DNA of 11,574 nucleotides from Prevotellaceae bacterium. Lineage in GTDB: Bacteria > Bacteroidota > Bacteroidia > Bacteroidales > Bacteroidaceae. The stretch lies in the NCBI GenBank assembly GCA_021204165.1, contig JAJPZU010000112.1:1-11574 (forward strand), in the 5' to 3' direction. Positions 1-11,574 of the stretch are shown piece by piece. The notes beneath the pieces are model-generated. The model was not told the origin of the DNA and made no database searches. It worked only from the letters and a program-made list of their open reading frames with translations. A program made the position numbers and the translations under genes. The first letter of the stretch is position 1. Each line of letters begins with the position of its first letter.

Positions 1-10
1 AAGTTAGGGG

Positions 11-135
11 AGGTGGCGCGTAGCGACGGAGGAGTCTGTCGAAAACACCCACCAACTACACACGAGGAGTCTGCTGAAAACATCCCGCTAAATATACATG
101 AGTAGTCTGTAAATACACTCACTTAAACAAGAAGC
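11..135. repeat. Left terminal inverted-repeat arm. Core TIR 11..46 matches the reverse complement of 11538..11574 (36/37 with a single 1-nt indel). Three sub-terminal motif copies GAGGAGTCTG at 29..38, 64..73 and 100..109 (third is GAGTAGTCTG), spaced 35-36 bp.
   Basis: Direct alignment of positions 11..46 (aggtggcgcgtagcgacggaggagtctgtcgaaaac) with the reverse complement of 11538..11574 (aggtggcgcggtagcgacggaggagtctgtcgaaaac). Extended units share the consensus ACACATGAGGAGTCTGYYGARAACAYCCC. Confidence 0.85.
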
Positions 136-226
136 ATAATATTCCCACACGGAAACAGAGGGAAAAGAATCAGGGACACCATCACGATGCCCCTGAAAAA
201 CACAATGATTTCCGACAAGTCATACA

Positions 227-1681
227 CTATAAAGGCATGTTGCCATGCTTCTTCGGCGGATTGCTCTGATTCTTGTTACGAGTCATCTCCAGTGCCTGAA
301 TAAGACGTATGCGGGTGTCACACGGCTGTATGATTTCATCAATATAGCCAAGCTGTGCAGCCGGCATAGGATTGGCAAATTTACGTCGGTATTCCTCTAT
401 CGCCGCCGCGCGCTCTTCCGGCGAAGCCTTTCGGTAGAGAATGTTACATGCACCTTCCGCTCCCATCACGGCAATCTCCGCAGTCGGATAAGCTAAATTC
501 ACATCCGCACCGATACATTTGCTGTTCATCACAATGTATGCCCCGCCATAAGCCTTGCGCGTGATGAGTGTGAGCTTCGGTACTGTGGCCTCAGCAAAAG
601 CATACACAATCTTAGCCCCATGACGGATGATGCCGTTGTGCTCCTGATCTGTTCCCGGAAGGAAGCCCGGAACATCCTCCACCGCCACGAGCGGAATATT
701 AAAGCAGTCGCAGAAACGGATAAAGCGGGCAGCCTTGTCGCTTGCGTCAATATCGAGCGCACCGGCAAGGAAGTTTGGCTGATTTGCCACAAAACCCACT
801 GTGCGGCCGGCAAGACGTCCGAATCCTACTACAATGTTCTTGGCAAACTCGGTCATCACCTCGAAGAAATACTGCTGGTCGCATACCGGTTCTATGATAT
901 TGCGTATGTCATACGGCACATTAGGGTCTTCCGGAACCACATTGTCCAGTTCATGGCACACGCGGGTTATCTCATCTGTCACCGGATAGACAGGGGCATC
1001 TTCCATATTATTGGAAGGGATGAATCCAATCAGTTCGCGGATGGTCATCAGAGTCTCTTCCTCATCGCGGCAGACGAAATGGCTCACACCGCTCACACTG
1101 CTATGCGTCATGGCACCTCCGAGTGTCTCCTTGTCAACCGCTTCATTCGTCACGGCACGAACCACGTCCGGACCGGTGACAAACATCTGGCTCTGTCCCT
1201 TCACCATGAGAATGAAATCTGTCAGTGCAGGAGAATAGCACGACCCTCCGGCGCAAGGCCCGAGTATGGCAGAAATCTGCGGAATCACTCCGGATGCCAT
1301 CACGTTTTGCCGGAAGATGTGTGCAAAACCGGTCAGACTTTCCACTCCTTCCTGTATGCGTACACCTCCGGAATCGTTCAGACCGATAATCGGTGCTCCG
1401 TTTTTAAGGGCAAGTTCCTGCACTTTCACAATCTTCTGCGCGTTTGCCGCACTGAGAGAACCTCCCAATACCGCAAAATCAAAAGCATAGACGAAGACAA
1501 TGCGTCCGTCAATCTTGCCGTATCCGGAAATCACACCGTCGCCCTCCACACGCTTCTTGTCCATGCCGAAGTCGTTGCAACGATGCACCACATGCTTGTC
1601 CATTTCCACAAATGTTCCTTTGTCAAGAAGCAAATCTATGCGCTCACGTGCTGTGAGTCTCTGTATCTTATTGTCATTCAT
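227..1681 (-). CDS. pccB: Acyl-CoA carboxylase carboxyltransferase subunit (propionyl-CoA carboxylase beta chain / methylmalonyl-CoA carboxyltransferase family), 484 aa
   Basis: Full-length ORF with the typical two-domain carboxyltransferase sequence. The C-terminus ...PPKKHGNMPL matches the conserved KHGNIPL tail of PccB/MmdA-type enzymes. Start overlaps the upstream BCCP gene by 8 nt (operon). Confidence 0.9.
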   Translation of the reverse strand: MNDNKIQRLTARERIDLLLDKGTFVEMDKHVVHRCNDFGMDKKRVEGDGVISGYGKIDGRIVFVYAFDFAVLGGSLSAANAQKIVKVQELALKNGAPIIGLNDSGGVRIQEGVESLTGFAHIFRQNVMASGVIPQISAILGPCAGGSCYSPALTDFILMVKGQSQMFVTGPDVVRAVTNEAVDKETLGGAMTHSSVSGVSHFVCRDEEETLMTIRELIGFIPSNNMEDAPVYPVTDEITRVCHELDNVVPEDPNVPYDIRNIIEPVCDQQYFFEVMTEFAKNIVVGFGRLAGRTVGFVANQPNFLAGALDIDASDKAARFIRFCDCFNIPLVAVEDVPGFLPGTDQEHNGIIRHGAKIVYAFAEATVPKLTLITRKAYGGAYIVMNSKCIGADVNLAYPTAEIAVMGAEGACNILYRKASPEERAAAIEEYRRKFANPMPAAQLGYIDEIIQPCDTRIRLIQALEMTRNKNQSNPPKKHGNMPL

Positions 1682-2192
1682 TGTTTTCGTTCAGTTTTAA
1701 TGTTATCAATGTCTGTCCGACCTTCACACTGTCGCCTTCTGCCACAAGCACAGAAAGCACCTCGCAATCAGCCGCGACCTTATAGTTCGACTGCATCTTC
1801 ATAGCCTCCATAGTCAGTACCGTGTCTCCGGCCTTCAGCTTGTCGCCCTGCTTGCAATACGCTTTTACTATCTTGCACGGCATCGGCGCCGTCACCTGAT
1901 CGCTCTGCACGGCATCCGTCTTTTTCCGCATACGCATGTATTTTGCCTGCGAGTCCAACATGTCAATCTGGTAAGTCGAATAGTTGACATTCACGCGGTA
2001 ATGCTTTCCTGCATCGCTCTTCACCAGCTCTGCCTTGTACGAGTTTCCATTGTGAATAATCGAACATGTTCCGTTTTGCAACATGGCCACATCCACATCA
2101 TAAACTTGTCCGTCTATATCAATCTTCACGTTGTTTCCGTCTTTGCTCAACAGCGTGACATCTACAATCTTGTTTCCAACCTGAATATCCAT
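1674..2192 (-). CDS. Biotin carboxyl carrier / biotin-lipoyl attachment protein (172 aa) with an N-terminal extra domain
   Basis: C-terminal biotinyl domain with the biotinylation motif EAMKM (LTMEAMKMQSNY). Sits between the biotin carboxylase and carboxyltransferase genes, co-directional and overlapping the downstream gene. Confidence 0.85.
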   Translation of the reverse strand: MDIQVGNKIVDVTLLSKDGNNVKIDIDGQVYDVDVAMLQNGTCSIIHNGNSYKAELVKSDAGKHYRVNVNYSTYQIDMLDSQAKYMRMRKKTDAVQSDQVTAPMPCKIVKAYCKQGDKLKAGDTVLTMEAMKMQSNYKVAADCEVLSVLVAEGDSVKVGQTLITLKLNENNE

Positions 2193-2308
2193 TATAATCG
2201 TTTTTTAGTTTAAGTTCTGCCTGCACATCGTTCATGCGGCTTCAAAATTCCACGAAACCGGACACCATGCGGGCGGCAGGCAGATGGTTGTGCAATCTTA
2301 TCGTACCA

Positions 2309-3835
2309 TTATACTCTCAACACACCCTTCTGCAATCCGAATGTTCTCCAGCGATTGATGGCGGACTGTCCCTGTTTGCATTCAGCCGCCCCACCGGTAT
2401 TTTCCTCCAGATTCATAAGGTAGTCTATGTAGGCGGCAATCACCGCCATCTCTTCGCTCTCGTTCTTGAATCCCGGACGCGGACGCAGACGCTCCGCATT
2501 GCGCTCTATAAAATAGGTGTTGTAGTTTCCTTCACGGAAATCAGGCACATCAATGATGCGGCGCAAGTAGCGTATGTTCGTAGTCAGACCGACAATCTTA
2601 TATTCATACAGCACTCTCCTCATGCGCTCAATGGCATACTGTCTCTCCGTAGCCCAAACGATAAGCTTTCCAATCATCGGATCGTAATGTACGGGAATCT
2701 CATAGCCCTCATATACATAGCTGTCGATTCGGATACCAATGCCGTGAGGCTCTGTGAGCTGAACAATCGTTCCCGGCGAAGGCATGAAGTTATGCTCCGT
2801 ATCCTCCGCACAGATGCGGCACTCTATGGCATGTCCTCTTTGGCGGATATCCTCCTGACGGTAGCCCAGCGGTTGTCCGTCAGCAATAAGAATCTGCTGT
2901 TTCACAAGATCGACGCCGACAACTTCTTCCGTGATAGGATGCTCCACCTGAAGCCGGGTGTTCATTTCAAGGAAATAGAAATGATGGTGCTTATCCACAA
3001 GAAACTCAATGGTGCCGGCACCGATGTAGCCCACCGCTTTTGCCGCAGCCACCGCCTTCTCGCCCATTTCGCGGCGAAGAGTGTCATCAATAAACGGCGA
3101 CGGACTTTCTTCTACTATTTTCTGGTGACGACGCTGCACAGAACATTCGCGGTCGTAAAGATGGATGACATTGCCATGCTTGTCGCCAAGTATCTGAAAC
3201 TCTATGTGGTGAGGCTCCTCGACAAACTTTTCGATATAGACTGTATCATCGCCAAACGAAGCCATCGCCTCGTTCTTTGCCGCATTGTACATCTCTATCA
3301 CATCTTCTTCGCGTTCAATAAGTCTCATGCCTTTTCCGCCGCCACCCATAGAAGCCTTCAGCATCACGGGGAAGCCAATCTTTCGGCACACCTCCAAGGC
3401 TTCCTCGCCACTGCTCAATTGCTCCTGAGTTCCGGGCACAACGGGCACTCCCGCCTTTATCATCTGTATGCGGGCGGAAATCTTGTCGCCCATCAATTCC
3501 ATGGTTTCCGGCTTTGGACCGATGAAGATGATGCCTTCAGCTTCACAACGACGCGCAAACTCGGAATTTTCGGAAAGGAAACCGTATCCCGGGTGAATGG
3601 CATCCACTTTGTGCTTCTTTGCCGCCTCGATAATGTGGTCGATATTCAGGTAGCTGTCTGCCGACGACGCACCGCCGATACACTCTGCTTCGTTTGCAAA
3701 AACGACATGGCGCGACAGACGGTCGGCAGTGCTATAGACAGCCACAGAACGTATGCCCATTTCATAACAAGCACGCATCACCCGAATCGCAATCTCACCG
3801 CGATTGGCAACCAATACTTTTCTTATCATAAACAT
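2309..3835 (-). CDS. accC: Biotin carboxylase (ATP-grasp), acetyl/propionyl-CoA carboxylase biotin carboxylase subunit, 508 aa
   Basis: N-terminus VLVANRGEIAIRV, glycine-rich ATP loop MGGGGKGMRLI, and the signature EMNTRLQVEHPITE. Full-length. Confidence 0.93.
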   Translation of the reverse strand: MFMIRKVLVANRGEIAIRVMRACYEMGIRSVAVYSTADRLSRHVVFANEAECIGGASSADSYLNIDHIIEAAKKHKVDAIHPGYGFLSENSEFARRCEAEGIIFIGPKPETMELMGDKISARIQMIKAGVPVVPGTQEQLSSGEEALEVCRKIGFPVMLKASMGGGGKGMRLIEREEDVIEMYNAAKNEAMASFGDDTVYIEKFVEEPHHIEFQILGDKHGNVIHLYDRECSVQRRHQKIVEESPSPFIDDTLRREMGEKAVAAAKAVGYIGAGTIEFLVDKHHHFYFLEMNTRLQVEHPITEEVVGVDLVKQQILIADGQPLGYRQEDIRQRGHAIECRICAEDTEHNFMPSPGTIVQLTEPHGIGIRIDSYVYEGYEIPVHYDPMIGKLIVWATERQYAIERMRRVLYEYKIVGLTTNIRYLRRIIDVPDFREGNYNTYFIERNAERLRPRPGFKNESEEMAVIAAYIDYLMNLEENTGGAAECKQGQSAINRWRTFGLQKGVLRV

Positions 3836-4431
3836 CTATATTTGGTTATACACTTTCTTCCATCTCAAAACAAAATATAATACGATATCAGAAAGCACAC
3901 TCCGAGAACCGCATGACAAAGCGGACAACTCACGAAAGAATACATATCCCAAGAATACATGAATACACAAAAAACACCGATATTCCATCCCGGAATCTCA
4001 GCAAAACAGTATTCTCAGTATTTTTCCGGCAGCTCTTATTCCCGAGAGCGGCATCTGAACATCGGCATCGGCAGGTCTTCTGACTTCTCCATTGGCAGCA
4101 CGGCCTTCCCAACCACAATTATTTACAGCCTCACGGCAATAACAAAGGTCAGTGGCACAACATGATGATGTGTTGCCATAAAAAACAGGAGTTACAGCTA
4201 CGGGTATAGTTACAGACTCACACTGTATTCCCTCTTAGTCTGTCCGTCTTTCCTGAGTGCTTCTTCCTGAAGTCCGCCATTCCCGAAATCAGATTAGGCA
4301 AATTCCAGTCTCAACAAGCCTCAAATGAAGAGGACAAGAACCAAATGCGCGGCAAAAGTACACATAAAATCCGAATCCATGCACTTTTTACCATATTTTT
4401 ACTCCAAACATTCTATGAAACTCTTGTGTTT

Positions 4432-4512
4432 TCTCCGGTATTTCCCCTGTGCTTTTCCGGTATTTTCCCGGTGTTCTTCCTGTATTTTTCCTGTATTTTC
4501 CCGGTTTTTTCC
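4432..4512. repeat. Degenerate tandem direct repeat, about 3.5 copies of a ~22-24 bp unit (TTYYCCGGTATTTYCCCKGTGYT)
   Basis: Three units are ttctccggtatttcccctgtgc / ttttccggtattttcccggtgttc / ttcctgtatttttcctgtattttcccggtttttt. Lies immediately 3' (minus-strand sense) of the flotillin terminator, in the non-coding gap. Confidence 0.6.
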
Positions 4513-4558
4513 ATAAAAAAGCATGGGACATTCCGCTTCTTTCGGAAATGCCCCATGC
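4513..4558 (-). terminator. Rho-independent terminator of the flotillin gene
   Basis: On the minus strand: GCATGGGGCATTTCCG-aaagaa-GCGGAATGTCCCATGC, an imperfect ~15-bp stem, followed directly by TTTTTT (plus-strand A-tract 4515..4520). Begins 21 nt after the flotillin stop codon. Confidence 0.7.
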
Positions 4559-4578
4559 ACCGTTTCTCTTTAGTTTAT

Positions 4579-5955
4579 TCAGTCTTCTACTTCTTCCGCA
4601 TCCACAGCAGGCTCTTCTTTTTTCTTCGCCAGATACTCCGGCAAATTAAGCCCCGCCATATCGAAAAGTTCGTTAAGCGGCGGAACAGACTTCATCAGTC
4701 CGGACACGAAACCGGCTGTAGAGCCTTTTCCGTCTGCACCACCGGCACCATTGTCCCAAACAGTCACATGGTCAATGTTGATACCCTTGACAGCCTCAAC
4801 CTGAGTCTTGACAAGCTCAGGAAGCTTTTCGAGCAGCAACAGCATGTATGCCTTGTTGGCATCTCCTCCGGCAGCCTGAACCATCTTGTCATAACCGGCA
4901 GCCTGCTTCGTCAGCACTTCATACAAACCTTTTGCTTCTGCCTCCATCTTGGCATAAATGGCATCTGCTTCACCCTTTGCATTGACACGCACGCGCTCTG
5001 CTTCCGCCTCCGCTTCGATGATAAGTCGTCTCTTCTCAATCTCCTGCGGAACGAGTACGTTGGCTGTTTCCGTAGAGCGTTCACGTTCTGCACGCGCTTC
5101 CTCAGCCTCGCGTTCTGCCGCGTATGCTTCCTGCAATGCCTTTGCCTGCTGTACTTTTTCTGAGGCTGTGGCTTTACGCTGTGCCTCCGCTTCCTTCTCA
5201 CGGCGATAAGCCTCGGATGCAGCAATGGCAACCTTCGCTTCGTTCTCACCCTTTACGGCTTCCGCATTGGCTTCGGCTGTACGTATGCGGGTTTCTCTCA
5301 CCGCTTCCGCCTTACCGATTTCACCGACTTTATCTTGCTCTGCCACTCTCACTTTTGCCTCATTTATCGCTTTGGCAGCAGCTTCACGTCCGAGAGCCTC
5401 TATATATCCGCTCTCATCTTTTATATCGGTCACGTTCACATTTATCAGACGAAGACCAATCTTTTTCAGTTCCACTTCTACATTGGCAGAAATGCTCTCA
5501 AGAAACTTGTCACGGTCGTTGTTCAGTTCCTCAATACTCATCGTGGCAATTACCAGACGCAACTGTCCGAAAAGAATATCACGCGCCAGTTCCTGTATCT
5601 GTGCAGCACTAAGTCCGAGCAAACGTTCCGCAGCTGCATTCATGCAATCGTGGTCTGTAGATATACCCACAGTGAAGCGGCTTGGCACATCCACACGGAT
5701 GTTCTGTTTGCTGAGCGCATTTGTCAGATTCGCATCAATACTGATTGGTGTAAGGCTAAGATAAGCATAGTCTTCGATTATAGGCCATACGAAAGCACCG
5801 CCGCCATGCACGCAACGTGCCGACGTTTTGCTGCTTTTACTCCCATAAATCACCAAAATTTTGTCCGAAGGACACCGTCTGTAACGATTCACAATGGAAA
5901 CGAACAGCGCAATAGCCACTACAGCGGCAATTACAATAAGATACATAGATTCCAT
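4579..5955 (-). CDS. Flotillin-family SPFH/band-7 domain protein (YqiK/FloT-like), 458 aa
   Basis: N-terminal TM helix (YLIVIAAVVAIALFVSIV), then an SPFH domain, then a long Glu/Ala-rich coiled coil (AEQDKVGEIGKAEAVRETRIRTAEANAEAV...EAEAQRKA...EAEAEAERVRV). Sits downstream of an NfeD-like gene, the canonical yqiJ-yqiK / nfeD-floT arrangement. Confidence 0.88.
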   Translation of the reverse strand: MESMYLIVIAAVVAIALFVSIVNRYRRCPSDKILVIYGSKSSKTSARCVHGGGAFVWPIIEDYAYLSLTPISIDANLTNALSKQNIRVDVPSRFTVGISTDHDCMNAAAERLLGLSAAQIQELARDILFGQLRLVIATMSIEELNNDRDKFLESISANVEVELKKIGLRLINVNVTDIKDESGYIEALGREAAAKAINEAKVRVAEQDKVGEIGKAEAVRETRIRTAEANAEAVKGENEAKVAIAASEAYRREKEAEAQRKATASEKVQQAKALQEAYAAEREAEEARAERERSTETANVLVPQEIEKRRLIIEAEAEAERVRVNAKGEADAIYAKMEAEAKGLYEVLTKQAAGYDKMVQAAGGDANKAYMLLLLEKLPELVKTQVEAVKGINIDHVTVWDNGAGGADGKGSTAGFVSGLMKSVPPLNELFDMAGLNLPEYLAKKKEEPAVDAEEVED

Positions 5956-6050
5956 AATTAATTATTTTAATATCCAACTTTTCAAGATTACAAGACCGGT
6001 TGCCGCATGAAGTGCCCCCTGTCTGAAGAAAGTTTCAAATTCATCTCTCT

Positions 6051-6140
6051 TGGTCAAAAATTCTCATCCCTTTGGGTCAAAATTTTCATTCCTTTAGTCA
6101 AAAAAATCTCATCCCTTTGGGTCAAAGATTCTCTACCACC
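6051..6140. repeat. Four tandem ~22-23 bp direct repeats, consensus GGGTCAAAAATTCTCATCCCTTT
   Basis: Units at 6051..6073, 6074..6095, 6096..6118 and 6119..6140 (tggtcaaaaattctcatcccttt / gggtcaaaattttcattccttt / agtcaaaaaaatctcatcccttt / gggtcaaagattctctaccacc). The last unit overlaps the final codons and stop of the NfeD gene. The array fills the nfeD-flotillin intergenic space. Confidence 0.8.
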
Positions 6141-6700
6141 AGCATTTCTCCGCCGACAACATCAGTAATCCGCACCTTGCGCCCTGTGGTTATCGCCTCA
6201 CCCTCTGTAACCGCATCCAGTTCATGCACGGAACCGTTCACACTTATCTGCACTTTTCCTCTGCCGCTCTTCTTCTCCGGAATGCGCAGATAGACATCTG
6301 CCACACGTCCCTTGCAATATTCAATGCGGAAGGCGCCGTTTGCCTCCAGCTTCTTGGTCTGCTTGTAGATAAAGAAGAACATCCACACAAAAAACAAGCC
6401 TACGGCTGCTGCCACGAGTGCCAGCAACACAGCATTACCCATCAGCGAATGCAGACAGACACCTGCCCAGCCGAAGCCCACAAAGAAATTGACAAGGCTC
6501 CTTATAGAGAACAACGACAGTCCTCCTCCCAAATCCATTGTGTCTCCGGCATCAAAATCGACATCTATGTCGCTTGAATCCATTCCGAACAACGTAAGCA
6601 GAAGCTGTATTACAAACACAGCTGACCCGACAAGTGCACAAACCCAGAACACTTGCTGCATAGTTTCAAGTCCACTGAACCAAATTGAAAAACTCTCCAT
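6122..6700 (-). CDS. NfeD-family membrane protein (YqiJ-like partner of flotillin), 192 aa
   Basis: Several N-terminal TM helices, a short acidic loop (DSSDIDVDFDAGD) and a C-terminal OB-fold/beta-barrel segment (KGRVADVYLRIPEKKSGRGKVQISVNGSVHELDAV...VRITDVVGGEMLVVENL) typical of NfeD. Immediately upstream of the flotillin gene. Confidence 0.8.
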   Translation of the reverse strand: MESFSIWFSGLETMQQVFWVCALVGSAVFVIQLLLTLFGMDSSDIDVDFDAGDTMDLGGGLSLFSIRSLVNFFVGFGWAGVCLHSLMGNAVLLALVAAAVGLFFVWMFFFIYKQTKKLEANGAFRIEYCKGRVADVYLRIPEKKSGRGKVQISVNGSVHELDAVTEGEAITTGRKVRITDVVGGEMLVVENL

Positions 6701-6899
6701 ATTCTAATTAGTTTTACGGTTATATAAATCATATTCTGAAATGATATGTCCACCATCTATTTTACAAAGAGGGAACATCCTTAAAAAAAATAACATTACC
6801 AGACTGCATTTTTCATTAAACACTCTCCTTCTCACTGCATTTTCATAATTCATAAAAGACTCCGATTAATTATTTTAATGATAAATGCCAATCTTATAA

Positions 6900-7580
6900 T
6901 TACCATACATATTGCGATGGATATTTTACTTGCATGAAAGTGAAGCCATGCCCCATTACGCTATGGTGAGAAGTCGTCTGTGCTGTCATATTTGATACAA
7001 TACTGCCAAACACCTGCATATTTGCTCTTGCGTCACCGCGTGAAGCAAGAATGGGTGCATCAGGGACATCGTAATCGCGCCATGCAAATAAGCAGACCTT
7101 TTGGGGATATGTCAAGAGATTTACAGCTGTTGTAGATTCTTGAATCAAAACTTCTATCGATTTAAGCATTTGCTGTCTGGCTTTTGCCCGTTTCCCTTCC
7201 GGGTATTTTCCCGTATTAGGCTCAACATATTTTTCCTCATAACAACACAAGTCACAGAATACAACTTTTTCATGTACCATTCCTGTCTCTGTCATTAATA
7301 AATCACATCGGTCTTTAATATTGGCAGTAGTGCCTGCAAATTGTTCGATATACTTTTCAAAACGAACCACAGCAATTTCCTTGCCATTATTATTCACCTT
7401 CAGAACTTCTTTATTGCATTCATTACGGTAAGCCCTTTCAGGCAATTGCTGACATCGTATGCAACTCTTGGAGTCGGTTTCTGAGAAAGGTTCGCGTATT
7501 CTGTAGAGAGGCACTTCTACTTCTTGTGGATTTATGCCATAATGGAGCGGGAATGCCTTTTTAAGAAAAGATTCTATCAT
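6900..7580 (-). CDS. Uncharacterised 226-aa protein with a Cys cluster (CxxC...CxxCC), translationally coupled partner of the upstream AAA ATPase. Candidate effector of a two-gene defence module.
   Basis: Start ATG overlaps the ATPase stop (ATGA at 7577..7580). Residues CIRC (40-43) and FCDLCCY (~112-118) could form a Zn-ribbon. No family recognised from sequence alone. Confidence 0.55.
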   Translation of the reverse strand: MIESFLKKAFPLHYGINPQEVEVPLYRIREPFSETDSKSCIRCQQLPERAYRNECNKEVLKVNNNGKEIAVVRFEKYIEQFAGTTANIKDRCDLLMTETGMVHEKVVFCDLCCYEEKYVEPNTGKYPEGKRAKARQQMLKSIEVLIQESTTAVNLLTYPQKVCLFAWRDYDVPDAPILASRGDARANMQVFGSIVSNMTAQTTSHHSVMGHGFTFMQVKYPSQYVW

Positions 7581-8737
7581 ACGTCAAGATTTACAAATTC
7601 ATTATAAATGTGACTCATCAACTCTGAGAGGTCGTAAGTATCTACAATCCACCGTCCGCGTTCATTTTGGACAAGCAAATCTTGTATCTCTCCTTCATAT
7701 ATTCGATAAACAGCCGTGTTAGTCCTGCTCAATTGGGCACGTACTGCATTTGTTTGGTTTAGTAAAACATTCAAGTAGTTAAGAATATACGGACTATGGG
7801 TCGCAAGCATCATATTAATTTCTCGATTTTCATCCGCATGTGTTGCCGACAGCACAATTTCTTCTATGAGTTTGCACTGTGCATCAGGGAACAGACTTAA
7901 CTCAGGTTCTTCAATATGGATATATACTTGTTTCTTCAAATCGCTGGGTTCTGCGACAGCCCGAAACTTGTTCAATCTTTCCATATCATACAGATAGTTC
8001 AGGACAGAGCGCTTGAATGCGTCCTTAAATGAAAAGCCATTTGCGCTGGCATAGTTCTTTACAATCAAAGCGACCGATGCTGACGTTTGAATGCCGGATG
8101 AAGCTTCTCGTAAGTCGATTGGCTCATGACGGCTGTCATTTGGAATGACGGTGTAGCGTGTAGGCTTACCTTTGGGGTGGGTTATCTGAAGCTTCATGCC
8201 TATATAGTCCAACGGTATCTCTTTGTCGTTTGCCGATGCTCTGACAAAATCATTGTTTGTTTCATGAAAATAAAATCCCAAGGTTGCACCTGTGTTTTGG
8301 GATGCCTTTTGCGCCCATGTCGGAATGATGTTTCGGTTTTCAGAGATATAGGACACTTTGTTGAACACCAAATGGTCAGAAGATATAATGGGAAGTCTGC
8401 CTAATTTCTTGTTTTCCATCAAGATGGTGTATTCCGTTTCATCATCCATGACTACACTATACCTAATTACACTTGACGAGTCAAGCATTTTATACATTCC
8501 CGTTTCTTTCATCATCGAATCGAAGCGCATCCTGAAAGGAGAGCTTGTTATTTTTGAATGCTTCAAATAAGAACGGATGTTTGCCATTTTGTACAGATAG
8601 CGCATCATGCTTATCAGCTTCATCAGTGTGCTTTTACCACTTGCGGATTCACCAATCAACACAGTGAATGGCAGAAGGCCAAGGTTCTCAATGTGCTTTA
8701 GCGGACCAATATTTTTAATTGTTATAAATTCCTTCAT
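7577..8737 (-). CDS. AAA_15/AAA_21-family ABC-type (SMC-like) ATPase, about 386 aa. The six-frame ORF extends to 8815, but the conserved N-terminus begins at Met-27 (MKEFITIKNIGPLKHIENL).
   Basis: N-terminal M-x-x-I-x-IKNxxxxxxxxxLxxxxxxxVLIGxNxSGKST architecture with Walker A GESASGKST. Walker B/D-loop VYIHIEEPELSLFPDAQ and H-loop MLATHSPYIL. This family supplies the ATPase of Septu (PtuA), OLD/Gabija N-domains, RloA-like and several Abi systems. The region is visibly more AT-rich than its neighbours. Confidence 0.8.
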   Translation of the reverse strand: MKEFITIKNIGPLKHIENLGLLPFTVLIGESASGKSTLMKLISMMRYLYKMANIRSYLKHSKITSSPFRMRFDSMMKETGMYKMLDSSSVIRYSVVMDDETEYTILMENKKLGRLPIISSDHLVFNKVSYISENRNIIPTWAQKASQNTGATLGFYFHETNNDFVRASANDKEIPLDYIGMKLQITHPKGKPTRYTVIPNDSRHEPIDLREASSGIQTSASVALIVKNYASANGFSFKDAFKRSVLNYLYDMERLNKFRAVAEPSDLKKQVYIHIEEPELSLFPDAQCKLIEEIVLSATHADENREINMMLATHSPYILNYLNVLLNQTNAVRAQLSRTNTAVYRIYEGEIQDLLVQNERGRWIVDTYDLSELMSHIYNEFVNLDV

Positions 8738-8956
8738 AATAAAGTTTTGTTTTTCAAACAATCTGATAAAGTATGATTTACCCAATAAAGATACTAATTT
8801 GTACTTCAACAGCAAAAAAAATCCTGTATTGTGACGCTAAAAACGTGAATTTATTACAGAAATGGCACTTTGTCATGTCAAATCAGAAGGTGAAGTGTCA
8901 AAACAGGAGATACAATCCAAACTTATTGTTGCATGAACATCTGGGGCCAGAGCCGC

Positions 8957-9478
8957 CTAATCCTCCAGCCAGTCCTCCGACAAACTGAAGTCCTTGTCCG
9001 CAAACAAGTCCGCCAGCCCGGAAATCTGCTTCAGCCTCAACAGCTCATCCTTGTCCATGCCGATATTGCGCATAATCCACGCATCCGACATGCCCGCAGA
9101 CGTAAGCTCCGACACGATGTGGCTCATCAGCTCTATCGTGTGCGTACCCCTCGCCCTGTTATGACGTATGGTCGAAGCCATTCTGCACGAAATATCCTTG
9201 TCTATCACCGACACGGGAAGCATCCCCTTCTCCCTGTCATAAATTCGTTTCGATGTCTTCATCACCAGATAGCGGTGGAATCCATCTACAATCTCATACT
9301 TGTCCTCGTCCTTCAAGTAATAGCACACGCAAGGCATGGTGTACCCGTCCTCCCATATCGACAGTTCCAACAGCTTCATCTCCGGAGGAGCCACCATGTT
9401 GGGGTTATAATTGTTCGCCACCACTTTCTCGATAGGCACTGCTATCACATTATATACCGGACTCTTAAAATTTTCCAT
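8957..9478 (-). CDS. IbrB-like ParB/Srx-fold (ParB N-terminal nuclease-like, DGxHR) protein, 173 aa
   Basis: ParB-domain motifs VANNYNPN and EIVDGFHR. Overlaps the upstream PAPS-reductase-like gene by 14 nt. The gene pair matches E. coli ibrA-ibrB / ybdN-ybdM and is analogous to DndC-DndB. Confidence 0.8.
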   Translation of the reverse strand: MENFKSPVYNVIAVPIEKVVANNYNPNMVAPPEMKLLELSIWEDGYTMPCVCYYLKDEDKYEIVDGFHRYLVMKTSKRIYDREKGMLPVSVIDKDISCRMASTIRHNRARGTHTIELMSHIVSELTSAGMSDAWIMRNIGMDKDELLRLKQISGLADLFADKDFSLSEDWLED

Positions 9479-10763
9479 ATTCCAATGCTTTATATTTTCT
9501 CATCACACTTTCTCGTCTGCTCTTCTCATTCTTGGTCAGGGTAAAGCCCATGTACTTACACACATGGTCGTTTCTCAGTATGCAGATGCAGACACGCTTG
9601 AATGTCGGAATCTCCCGAAACTCCGGAATGTCTATGTCGTCAACGTACTCCATCATGACCGGTCTTTTGTTAGTGCGGTATGCCGTGGTCGTCCCAACCG
9701 TAAACTTCACCCCTGCCGCACGCAATTTTTCAATGGTCTCATCGCTCAGACATCCGCCTTTCGTCCTCCAGAATCTCATGCTCACACCTATCTTGTCCAG
9801 ATAATTGCGGCACACCTTCTCCGGCAACGTGTCCAGCAGAAAGTACATGTACTTTTTCCAAGAAAATCCGTGAGGACATTTTATCGACTTCCATCCCATA
9901 GCCGTCGTATTCCCGTAGATGCCGGAAAAATTGACACCATTGACACGGCTGACCATCCGCCCCCACATGTCGGGGTCTATCGCCCGATAGACACTCAGCG
10001 TAGGTATGGCATGAGAAATGAACGGACTTGCCACCCGCTGCCGCCCAATCGGAATGCCCGCACGCGAATAAAGGTCATAAAGCGGATTATAAGTCCATCC
10101 GAATTTTCCGTTTGCCGTCCAGATGTCAGATGTTTTCCAGTCATAAAGCGGATAAGCGTTATACACATGTGCAGCAAGCTTATGTGTCCATTTGTAATGC
10201 GAAAGCCGCCGGTAGTTCTTGGCATTGTGTATGGCCGTCCACCGGTTAAAACTCTCCTGCGTCCTTATGCCTACAAGACAACATATACGTTCACATTTCT
10301 TCCGGTTGCGCAGCCAAGGGGCGAAAAGATACTGGAAGTCATAGTCCCACAAGGCATCAGTGAAGAAATTGAAATCGGCTGCCGTATAAGCCCCCTCAGG
10401 CATTTCCCTCACCCATATATCCTTCTCCGATTCTCCCCAAGGTCTCCAATACGACTGGTGCATGGATGTACAGGTCATGACTTTGAAGGGCACGCAACAA
10501 TGGTACACCTCCAGAATGTCGCGATTCTCCGACAGGGTACGGCGCACATACTCCGTGGTCTGCCGGTACTGCACCTCGTAGTCCATGTGGAACACACCCA
10601 GCTTACGTCCCGGAGCATACCTCCGTATATAGTCTATGCACAGATTCAACAACACTCCGCTGTCCTTGCCACCCGAAAACGAGACATACACATAATCGAA
10701 ATAATCGAATATGATCTTCAGCCTCCTTTGCACTGCTTCATAAACATCAAGTTGCCTAATCAT
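9465..10763 (-). CDS. IbrA-like phosphoadenosine-phosphosulfate-reductase-family PP-loop ATP pyrophosphatase with a long C-terminal (DUF3440-like) extension, 432 aa
   Basis: N-terminal PP-loop SFSGGKDS (VYVSFSGGKDSGVLLNL) characteristic of the PAPS reductase/DndC/YbdN family. Its size and the overlapping ParB-like downstream gene match the IbrA/IbrB pairing. Confidence 0.8.
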   Translation of the reverse strand: MIRQLDVYEAVQRRLKIIFDYFDYVYVSFSGGKDSGVLLNLCIDYIRRYAPGRKLGVFHMDYEVQYRQTTEYVRRTLSENRDILEVYHCCVPFKVMTCTSMHQSYWRPWGESEKDIWVREMPEGAYTAADFNFFTDALWDYDFQYLFAPWLRNRKKCERICCLVGIRTQESFNRWTAIHNAKNYRRLSHYKWTHKLAAHVYNAYPLYDWKTSDIWTANGKFGWTYNPLYDLYSRAGIPIGRQRVASPFISHAIPTLSVYRAIDPDMWGRMVSRVNGVNFSGIYGNTTAMGWKSIKCPHGFSWKKYMYFLLDTLPEKVCRNYLDKIGVSMRFWRTKGGCLSDETIEKLRAAGVKFTVGTTTAYRTNKRPVMMEYVDDIDIPEFREIPTFKRVCICILRNDHVCKYMGFTLTKNEKSRRESVMRKYKALEYGKF

Positions 10764-11164
10764 TCCTTACGTCCTCCGGCATATACCATCTTGTCATAAT
10801 TCTTCCATTCCCTATGTGTCCTGAAGCCGTTGCGTGCAAAGTCAGCCACATGACGCTTGTGTACGACTGCGGTCAGCACAGTCCTGCTCACCGACTCCGC
10901 CACCACCCTGTCGAGCAGAGCATCAATGAGCAAAGAATCGTCGCCCTTGATATAATAATTGTCAATACAGGCTTCACGCTCTTTCTCCTTTACCGGAATG
11001 AATCCGATTACCTCCTTTTTCTCTATGGCCACATACCATTTGTGATGACGGGAGGTCTTGAAGGGATAATTGTTGTTGAGCCTCAACACTGCCGCATTCA
11101 TCACCAGCGGTGCCACCAGCTCATAAAGGCGGGAAGATGTGCCTTCTAAAATCTCAATATTCAT
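10760..11164 (-). CDS. Small hypothetical protein (134 aa), possibly a minimal GNAT-fold acetyltransferase. First gene of the IbrAB-like operon.
   Basis: Stop overlaps the IbrA-like start (ATGA at 10760..10763). The C-terminal segment HVADFARNGFR resembles GNAT motif B (N..A..fY.k.GF). No clear acetyl-CoA P-loop, so the fold assignment is weak. Confidence 0.45.
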   Translation of the reverse strand: MNIEILEGTSSRLYELVAPLVMNAAVLRLNNNYPFKTSRHHKWYVAIEKKEVIGFIPVKEKEREACIDNYYIKGDDSLLIDALLDRVVAESVSRTVLTAVVHKRHVADFARNGFRTHREWKNYDKMVYAGGRKE

Positions 11165-11439
11165 AAAAACAGTCTTTTTGATTCTTGCCTATCCCGACTT
11201 CCGAATCATGAGAGTCTCGGTCTTATAAAGAAGATACATCAGTTGCCACATCCGTAATCTATAAACAGCAGACATCATGAACCATCAAAGTCAAGTAATG
11301 CAATAAACTATGCAAAAGTACGACAAATACCTTTTTTATTCTACCCGATGTCATATTTTTTACAAGAAGAATACTTAGATACTGTTTTTTAGAAGCCGTT
11401 TGTTTAAATGAATGTATTCAACAATTTTAAGCTTGTCTA

Positions 11440-11574
11440 TTTAACGGACTCCTCATGTGTATTTAGTGGAATGTTTTTATATTTGGTGGGGTGTTCTCGG
11501 CAGACTCCTCATGTGTGAATTGTATGTGTTAGCAGACGTTTTCGACAGACTCCTCCGTCGCTACCGCGCCACCT
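11440..11574. repeat. Right terminal inverted-repeat arm, ending exactly at the window edge. Core 11538..11574. Three motif copies (as reverse complement GAGGAGTCTG/GAGGAGTCCG) at 11546..11555, 11501..11510 and 11445..11454.
   Basis: Reverse complement of 11440..11574 reads aggtggcgcggtagcgacg-GAGGAGTCTGtcgaaaac...acacatGAGGAGTCTGccgagaacacccc...acacatGAGGAGTCCGttaaatagac. Motif order and orientation mirror the left arm. Inner spacings are 45 and 56 bp. Confidence 0.85.

Follow-up and report, generated by a model that had tools for sequence, protein, structure and literature searches.

What does the IbrA/IbrB protein pair do, and with what does it act in gut Bacteroidales? The question is raised by an 11,574-nucleotide (nt) contig of a Prevotellaceae bacterium (GenBank assembly GCA_021204165.1, contig JAJPZU010000112.1, positions 1 to 11,574 of the forward strand), the whole of which is called the window below. 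Here, the genes for an IbrA-like PP-loop enzyme and an IbrB-like ParB-fold protein are preceded by a small gene whose product of 134 amino acids (aa) is called ORF134 (ORF, open reading frame). IbrA and IbrB, which occur in E. coli K-12 (as YbdN and YbdM), in numerous temperate phages and widely among gut Bacteroidales, are a long-standing 'known unknown': the pair as such is known, though uncharacterised biochemically. New in comparison to the annotation and literature examined are an obligate third subunit derived from the GNAT superfamily, the loss of the coenzyme A (CoA) loop from this subunit and the SNF2-type partners that take its place in phages. The most likely function of the trio is that of a nucleic-acid-directed adenylating module, with the GNAT-derived protein as accessory subunit.

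The three-gene operon and its inheritance

The identity and architecture of the operon, as described here, are practically certain. Its features are the following (NTP, nucleoside triphosphate):

10760-11164, minus strand: ORF134, first gene of the operon (134 aa; GNAT fold, no Pfam family)
9465-10763, minus strand: IbrA-like gene, YbdN family (432 aa; Pfam, YbdN alignment, phrog_2302)
10074-10688, minus strand: PAPS_reduct (adenine-nucleotide alpha-hydrolase) domain of IbrA (residues 26-230; PF01507)
10659-10682, minus strand: PP-loop SFSGGKDS of IbrA (residues 28-35)
9519-10058, minus strand: DUF3440 domain of IbrA (residues 236-415; PF11922)
8957-9478, minus strand: IbrB-like gene, YbdM family, ParB/Srx fold (173 aa; YbdM alignment, phrog_2159)
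9257-9448, minus strand: ParB N-terminal (NTP-binding fold) region of IbrB (residues 11-74)
9272-9286, minus strand: DGFHR box of IbrB (residues 65-69)
11313-11320, minus strand: candidate Bacteroidetes-type -7 promoter box TACTTTTG (TAnnTTTG; consensus match only)

The stop codon of ORF134 and the start codon of IbrA share the ATGA at 10760-10763, and the genes for IbrA and IbrB overlap by 14 nt (ATGGAAAATTTTAA, 9465-9478). Both overlaps had been pointed out in an earlier, model-made reading of the letters (the first-pass annotation), and the ORF list and the sequence confirm them, together with the motifs quoted there (SFSGGKDS in IbrA; ANNYNPN and DGFHR in IbrB). The long ORFs on the plus strand (9411-10799 and 8933-9544) are antisense shadows of the conserved minus-strand genes. 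The -7 box of the window sits 156 nt upstream of the ORF134 start codon. Across loci, variants of TAnnTTTG rank as the three commonest 8-mers of the 250-nt region before ORF134; some 60 of 75 loci have one there, mostly between -25 and -65. Besides this box, no conserved motif was seen when the upstream regions of the loci were compared. Scans of the leader region for sigma-70-type promoters and terminators stayed at chance level, and the Rfam scan of the leader returned no RNA family. The trio is apparently a self-contained three-gene operon with its own candidate promoter.

The assignment of the pair is secure from the Pfam domains of IbrA, the alignments with YbdN and YbdM, the PHROG families and the Noc-aligned DGFHR box of IbrB. 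In IbrA, the DUF3440 profile (PF11922) is matched with 292.9 bits (E = 1.1e-87) over profile positions 1-181 of 182, above the Pfam cut-off, and PAPS_reduct (PF01507) with 47.5 bits against a cut-off of 22.5 (E = 2.7e-12). BLASTP aligns the protein over its full length (residues 5-430) with E. coli K-12 YbdN at 31% identity (E = 1e-65), and the phage family phrog_2302 is matched at 1.4e-98. A sequence search of the PDB gave no relative. In an alignment of 14 diverse members (Bacteroidales, E. coli, four phages and one contig of 65% guanine plus cytosine, GC), the motifs SFSGGKDS, GIRxxES and YPxxDWxxxDxW are invariant and no cysteine is conserved. The two most frequent cysteines are both absent from the IbrA of Flavobacterium phage 23T, and one of them is absent from that of Mycobacterium phage Gaia.

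CysH-type reductases possess a catalytic ECGLH motif at the C-terminus, and in adenosine 5'-phosphosulfate (APS) reductases the ligands of the cluster are found as CC...CxxC. Neither is present in IbrA, which reads LYSRAGIPIGRQRVASPF after NPLYD. A role as CysH-type reductase of 3'-phosphoadenosine 5'-phosphosulfate (PAPS) or APS in sulfate assimilation was ruled out, as there is no such cysteine motif.

Among the long IbrA homologues, a single real-looking IbrA::IbrB fusion was found (P0233, 572 aa, on one ENA contig). Its IbrA part runs to YMGFTQTK, and the IbrB part sets in at about residue 13. Such a fusion would fit IbrA and IbrB acting as one unit, an assembly deletion being the alternative. 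The other long homologues were rejected as fusions: P0199 and P0225 result from internal duplication, which probably arose in assembly, and P0312 has the appearance of a read-through after a frameshift.

IbrB is 50% identical to E. coli K-12 YbdM (BLASTP, E = 3e-53) and matches phage family phrog_2159 at 1.3e-77. The Pfam profile ParB_N (PF02195) is met weakly, at 19.1 bits against a cut-off of 26.3, and phage IbrB proteins score similarly low. The sole PDB sequence match is the N-terminal domain of Noc (E = 0.0017); in this alignment, DGFHR falls on the GERR nucleotide-binding box of ParB. The motifs NYNPN, DGFHR and IRHNRARG are invariant or nearly so in 77 family members, including those of E. 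coli and a Streptococcus phage. The same type of ParB domain also matches the N-terminal part of the phage DNA methyltransferase family phrog_498 (9.7e-9). Fusions of a ParB fold with an acetyltransferase that bind GTP were described in a 2025 survey (PMC12704722). The naming of the pair as IbrA/IbrB (YbdN/YbdM) in the first-pass annotation is borne out by these results. Of the Pfam families it had named, PAPS_reduct and DUF3440 were recovered, ParB_N stayed below its cut-off and no GNAT family was matched by ORF134.

How tightly the third gene belongs to the pair was seen from a genome scan for IbrA with one genome per species. It yielded 80 loci from Prevotellaceae, Bacteroidaceae, Muribaculaceae, Rikenellaceae, Odoribacter, Butyricimonas, Parabacteroides, Coprobacter and one Niabella. 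IbrB directly follows IbrA in all 80, and ORF134 lies directly upstream in 78 of the 78 informative loci; the remaining two are cut off by a contig end no more than about 100 nt from IbrA. The reverse search, with the ORF134 profile on metagenome contigs, found IbrA immediately downstream in 80 of 80 loci. Every junction within the trio is an overlap or a gap of at most 9 nt. Since no Bacteroidales pair lacking ORF134 was found, the functional unit consists of three parts, not two. The first-pass annotation had suggested that the 134-aa gene may add a component to the pair and had named its conservation next to IbrA as a check; the suggestion stands and is strengthened.

The pairwise distance matrices of the three proteins are correlated (ORF134-IbrA, r = 0.79; IbrA-IbrB, r = 0.76), with ORF134 evolving fastest (mean pairwise distance 0.55), IbrA at 0.35 and IbrB slowest (0.22). 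In the table of the 80 loci, the identity to the window drops broadly by taxonomic family, which suggests vertical inheritance and not an island-like turnover. No flanking gene family is common to more than eight loci. The 107 nearest neighbours are mostly housekeeping genes, such as those for alanyl-tRNA synthetase, BipA, AhpC/thioredoxin, oxidoreductases and response regulators. The trio is inherited as one block across Bacteroidales, among ordinary chromosomal genes. Cultured carriers include Bacteroides xylanisolvens, Parabacteroides goldsteinii, Rikenella microfusus and Butyricimonas synergistica, which are tractable hosts for the operon.

ORF134, a protein derived from the GNAT fold

The copy of ORF134 in the window is intact and of full length, and 249 homologues of the same length were collected at E <= 1e-3. 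When 1.84 billion representative proteins were searched exhaustively with the profile, only 307 relatives came up; the family is therefore small and sharply delimited. Its N-terminal signature segment is APLVMNxAVLRxNNNYPFKT, and the signature of the family as a whole is APLVMNPAVLRQNNNYPFKT...W...GF.P...IDNYY..GD...RH...F...Y.KM. The protein matches no Pfam family at E <= 0.1, no PADLOC family and no PHROG family, and a PDB search by sequence gave no relative. The sole library match is to the RimI model, far below threshold (17.2 against 86.4 bits), and only one or two of 48 family members make weak contact with a GNAT model.

ORF134 nevertheless carries the GNAT alpha/beta fold. The sole bridge in sequence to the superfamily is provided by a divergent relative, P0388, which matches both the ORF134 profile (E = 9e-16) and Pfam Acetyltransf_1 (4.4e-12) and, judged by these matches, is a canonical GNAT of intermediate position. 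The alignment of the two reveals what has become of the cofactor site. In P0388, the Q/R-x-x-G-x-G/A loop between strand 4 and helix 3, to which the acyl-CoA pyrophosphate binds, reads LPEYRGKGI; exactly here the window-type ORF134 shows a deletion of six residues and reads NYYI-KGDDS. The NYYxxGD motif is conserved across the ORF134 family. As the acyl-CoA pyrophosphate loop is deleted, ORF134 is best described as GNAT-derived, a degenerate GNAT in which the classical use of acyl-CoA has probably been lost. The term GNAT-like of the first-pass annotation accordingly holds for the fold, whereas the degenerate sequence matches no GNAT hidden Markov model and lacks the CoA loop.

The most conserved surface of ORF134 is the region from helix 1 to strand 2, where GNATs have their acceptor side. 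Among viral structures, the ORF134 model is matched best by two BFVD entries, A0A6J5SUH2 (464 aa) and A0A8T9VW75 (461 aa), with TM-scores of 0.77 and 0.63 on the ORF134 query. In both cases the match is a domain within an uncharacterised phage protein.

What the trio may do

Relatives from outside Bacteroidales show the pair in other company. The E. coli ybdNM genes (L081:4748-6570) belong to the same two families, in the same order (IbrA before IbrB) and with overlapping frames, and their biochemical activity is as undefined as that of the Bacteroidales pair. They differ by the lack of ORF134 and by a LysR regulator gene (citR) upstream. The E. coli type of IbrA also lacks a segment of about 45 residues in DUF3440 that the types from Bacteroidales, the Streptococcus phage and Gaia possess.

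Phages often carry the pair, and standard annotation calls their homologues 'co-activator of prophage gene expression IbrA/IbrB'. ORF134 was found neither in E. coli ybdNM nor in the four phage ibrAB modules examined, and in three of these four an SNF2-type ATPase or a nuclease-like protein is present in its place. In Streptococcus phage CHPC877, whose IbrA is 54% identical to that of the window and whose tightly coupled genes fall into the same PHROG families, an SNF2-type ATPase is translationally coupled ahead of IbrA-IbrB. The small proteins upstream of this module were considered as counterparts of ORF134 and rejected as unrelated (hhalign probability <1%). Flavobacterium phage 23T likewise has a translationally coupled SNF2-type ATPase, with the order of the pair reversed (SNF2-IbrB-IbrA). 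In Mycobacterium phage Gaia, a PD-(D/E)XK-like protein is followed by IbrA and a cupin::ParB fusion, with primase and helicase genes close by; the modules of Gaia and CHPC877 both lie close to replication genes. The fusion protein, gp104 (L165:4290-5189), combines the IbrB-type ParB domain with an N-terminal cupin that resembles ectoine synthase (PF06339, 1.3e-32). This cupin could bring an oxygenase- or lyase-type chemistry to the module.

Two metagenomic contigs extend the picture. On one of 38% GC (L163:1546-3736), an SNF2-type ATPase (534 aa), the canonical GNAT P0388 and the N-terminus of an IbrA are encoded in overlapping genes, so that the phage-type SNF2 and a GNAT are combined ahead of IbrA. 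The RGKG loop of P0388 is intact, the IbrA motif reads SVSGGKDS and the contig ends before any IbrB. On the other (L164, 65% GC), an ORF134-like gene is followed by IbrA and a 265-aa IbrB-like protein.

PP-loop enzymes adenylate their substrates, as known from the TilS, ThiI, MnmA, DndC and CysD families. In the proposed mechanism, the three proteins would act jointly, probably as a complex, on a nucleic acid, most probably DNA. The SNF2-type ATPases or nuclease-like protein that form the third gene in phages point to DNA as the target. Further support for a role directed at DNA comes from the replication genes near the Gaia and CHPC877 modules, from the gene combination on L163, from the phrog_498 match of the IbrB-type ParB domain, from the fusion P0233 and from the GTP-binding fusions of ParB fold and acetyltransferase. 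IbrB would engage the polymer via its NTP-binding ParB fold and its C-terminal helical region. The PP-loop of IbrA would then use ATP to adenylate an oxygen of the target, either a base carbonyl or a phosphate, and thereby activate it for substitution. ORF134 would probably serve as a substrate-presenting or regulatory subunit and not as a classical acetyl-CoA transferase. The outcome would be a covalent mark, or a nucleotide-dependent switch, that alters gene expression or DNA recognition.

As a whole, a three-gene operon encoding such a joint, nucleic-acid-directed adenylating module is the best explanation, and it is held with about even confidence. That the mechanism is a modification directed at DNA or RNA is put somewhat below even chances. 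A bolder version is doubtful: the trio would be an unrecognised three-component nucleic-acid modification system, derived from a phage SNF2-IbrA-IbrB arrangement and vertically inherited in much of the gut Bacteroidales, in which IbrA adenylates a base or the backbone and the CoA-free, GNAT-derived subunit delivers or positions a group, giving a new DNA (or RNA) mark. If a modification were found, it would mean that abundant bacteria of the gut, together with their phages, use an epigenetic chemistry not known before.

Several points weigh against the adenylating module. The literature searched reports no biochemical activity for any IbrA or IbrB. No SNF2 partner accompanies the Bacteroidales operon in the 80 loci, nor do the genes around it point to a function. 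A non-canonical mode of acyl-donor binding is still conceivable for ORF134. The strong conservation of IbrB (50% identity to E. coli, mean distance 0.22) would also fit a universal small-molecule enzyme. Finally, the one genetic phenotype that is known for ibrAB, and by which the pair was defined, is transcriptional: it is reported to trans-activate prophage eib genes in E. coli ECOR-9, a result attributed to Sandt et al. in 2002.

This last point leads to the alternative that survives best, although it is unlikely in itself: a transcriptional co-activator or anti-silencer. IbrB would be an NTP-dependent DNA-binding switch like VirB, KorB or DndB that leaves no covalent mark, and IbrA and ORF134 would merely tune it, for instance by making or consuming its ligand. 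Apart from the reported eib activation, the annotation of the phage homologues and the retained boxes of the ParB NTP pocket in IbrB speak for it. So does the tight repression of E. coli ybdNM under CitR, whose own gene is reported to be H-NS regulated; both ybdN and ybdM are derepressed in the transcriptome of a citR deletion (PMC9068703). This regulation by CitR is all that was found in the literature on IbrA/IbrB function (PMC9068703). However, an identity of 50% between Bacteroidales and E. coli is unexpected for a sequence-specific regulator, and besides the promoter box no operator-like motif is found upstream of the operon. A pure regulator would also leave the obligate PP-loop enzyme and the SNF2 or nuclease partners in phages unexplained.

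The conservation of IbrB, together with the housekeeping neighbours of the operon, is also what would be expected if the substrate were a soluble metabolite (a sulfur compound, cofactor or signalling nucleotide). IbrB would then be a phosphotransferase like sulfiredoxin or SerK, IbrA an adenylyl-transferring enzyme and ORF134 an N-acyltransferase. The ParB/Srx fold does include small-molecule kinases, with a weak NCBIfam SerK match at E = 0.017, and CysD and CysH are among the PAPS_reduct relatives. In the citR deletion that derepresses ybdNM, the table of up-regulated genes also contains cysDNC, cysJI and cysAWU, besides many flagellar genes (PMC9068703). Nonetheless, this metabolic role is quite improbable: IbrA has no CysH-type catalytic cysteine, nor any conserved one, the CoA loop is missing from ORF134, no transporter or other metabolic gene is conserved beside the operon, and the phage versions accompany SNF2 ATPases, a nuclease-like protein and replication genes.

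More improbable still would be that the trio, in analogy to Dnd, Ssp and BREX type 4, defends against phages or marks self against non-self. The N-terminal part of IbrA is weakly similar to the BrxP (E = 4.7e-7) and DndC (E = 3.4e-6) models, a defence-like AAA ATPase gene pair is inserted immediately after ibrB in the window, and the frequency of the pair on phages would allow a use in counter-defence. On the other hand, no PADLOC model matches ORF134 or IbrB, and the trio has no conserved companion of the restriction or effector type. Defence-like genes make up only about 3-5 of the 107 nearest neighbours in other genomes, the others being housekeeping genes, and the fall of identity by taxonomic family suggests vertical inheritance over island-like turnover. 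The label 'defence-associated' in the first-pass annotation is not supported for the Bacteroidales copies, as their neighbours are mainly housekeeping genes.

The least probable alternative is a tRNA or rRNA modification, with IbrA acting like TilS, ThiI or TtcA beside a GNAT-type partner reminiscent of TmcA: most characterised PP-loop enzymes do act on tRNA, IbrA has a weak N-terminal TilS match (E = 5.5e-4), all three proteins are strongly conserved and the setting is housekeeping-like (alanyl-tRNA synthetase is the nearest neighbour in two genomes), but the Pfam scan detected no RNA-binding domain (THUMP, PUA, TRAM), the partner is a ParB-fold protein and the phage versions are coupled to SNF2-type DNA translocases.

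The rest of the contig and the comparison with known systems

Outside the operon, the following features were recorded in the window:

7577-8815, minus strand: AAA_21/AAA_15 ATPase gene (likely true start ATG at 8737)
6900-7580, minus strand: gene for a 226-aa cysteine-rich protein (4-nt overlap with the AAA ATPase gene)
6041-6133, intergenic, between the flotillin and NfeD-like genes: tandem array of the 23-nt unit TCATCCCTTTGGGTCAAAAATTC, 4.1 copies
4425-4512, intergenic, between the flotillin gene and the riboswitch: tandem array of the 11-nt unit TTTTTCCGGTA, 7.6 copies
4053-4296, minus strand: cobalamin riboswitch (Rfam RF00174, 71.6 bits, E = 2e-16)

The first two genes lie in a 2.16-kilobase segment of low GC (about 0.38-0.42; 6799-8958) that follows directly on the ibrB stop codon. 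The three closest relatives (L032, L083 and L084) lack this segment but otherwise share the order trio-NfeD-flotillin. The best PADLOC match of the AAA ATPase is the candidate defence protein PDC-M29A (2.1e-26); the cysteine-rich protein has no match in any library scanned. The segment has the look of a defence-like, two-gene cassette inserted specifically in this strain. The riboswitch lies upstream of genes for biotin carboxylase, biotin carboxyl carrier and carboxyltransferase proteins (3835 down to 227).

Both ends of the contig carry an inverted repeat (20-96 versus 11478-11564, within the end regions 11-109 and 11478-11574), with a perfect core of 27 nt inside a 53-nt arm of 77% identity. 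The arms themselves consist of a degenerate tandem repeat with a 36-nt unit, made up of GAGGAGTCTGyyGArAAC and a spacer (2.3 copies at 29-109 according to Tandem Repeats Finder, TRF). The first-pass annotation had placed the module just inside the right arm of this repeat. The repeat does exist, though it is unrelated to the module: its motif is absent from all 164 related loci searched and homology to close relatives stops at 11361, before the right arm, and the inverted repeat is therefore not part of it. It is possibly an assembly-breaking repeat element, or else marks the boundaries of an invertible or mobile segment.

GNAT folds with non-canonical roles are known from PanZ/PanM, the regulator of PanD, and from Mom of phage Mu, which takes part in DNA adenine modification. 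ORF134 has no detectable sequence relationship to them and, unlike these proteins, lacks the CoA pyrophosphate loop. A combination of a ParB-like NTPase with a base-modifying enzyme on DNA, with SNF2-family helicases associated, occurs in the Dpd 7-deazaguanine system. The trio differs from it in that no DpdA (similar to tRNA-guanine transglycosylase) and no preQ0 pathway genes are present, the enzyme here being a PP-loop protein.

DndB/DndC, SspD and BrxP resemble the trio in composition: all pair with or contain a PP-loop ATP pyrophosphatase of the PAPS-reductase fold, to which Dnd adds a member of the ParB superfamily whose box is of the DGxHR type. The comparative-genomics literature examined on Dnd and BREX makes no mention of IbrA/IbrB. 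The BrxP model matches IbrA in the PP-loop region only (residues 20-110, 26.4 bits), and none of the partner genes of BREX type 4 (PglZ, BrxC, BrxL) is found in the window. Against the DndC equivalog TIGR03183, IbrA scores 18.1 bits where the cut-off is 290.4, and the PADLOC models of DndC match it partially (24.3 bits over residues 157-233). DndC features the cysteines of a 4Fe-4S (iron-sulfur, Fe-S) cluster and a cysteine dyad (PMC10853773), whereas the IbrA family has no conserved cysteines for an Fe-S cluster or a persulfide relay. The window holds no cysteine desulfurase, no DndA, DndD or DndE and no SspB or SspC, and no gene is conserved beside the trio in the 80 loci. A Dnd/Ssp-type phosphorothioation was ruled out by the DndC score, the unconserved cysteines and the missing partners.

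As IbrA lacks the cysteine signatures of both CysH and DndC, the trio serves neither sulfate assimilation nor Dnd/Ssp phosphorothioation, and the automatic labels of PAPS reductase/sulfur metabolism and of Dnd-like phosphorothioation can be set aside on sequence grounds. The parallel with DndC/DndB and SspD, already drawn in the first-pass annotation, keeps its value as a comparison: it is an analogy of parts, not membership.

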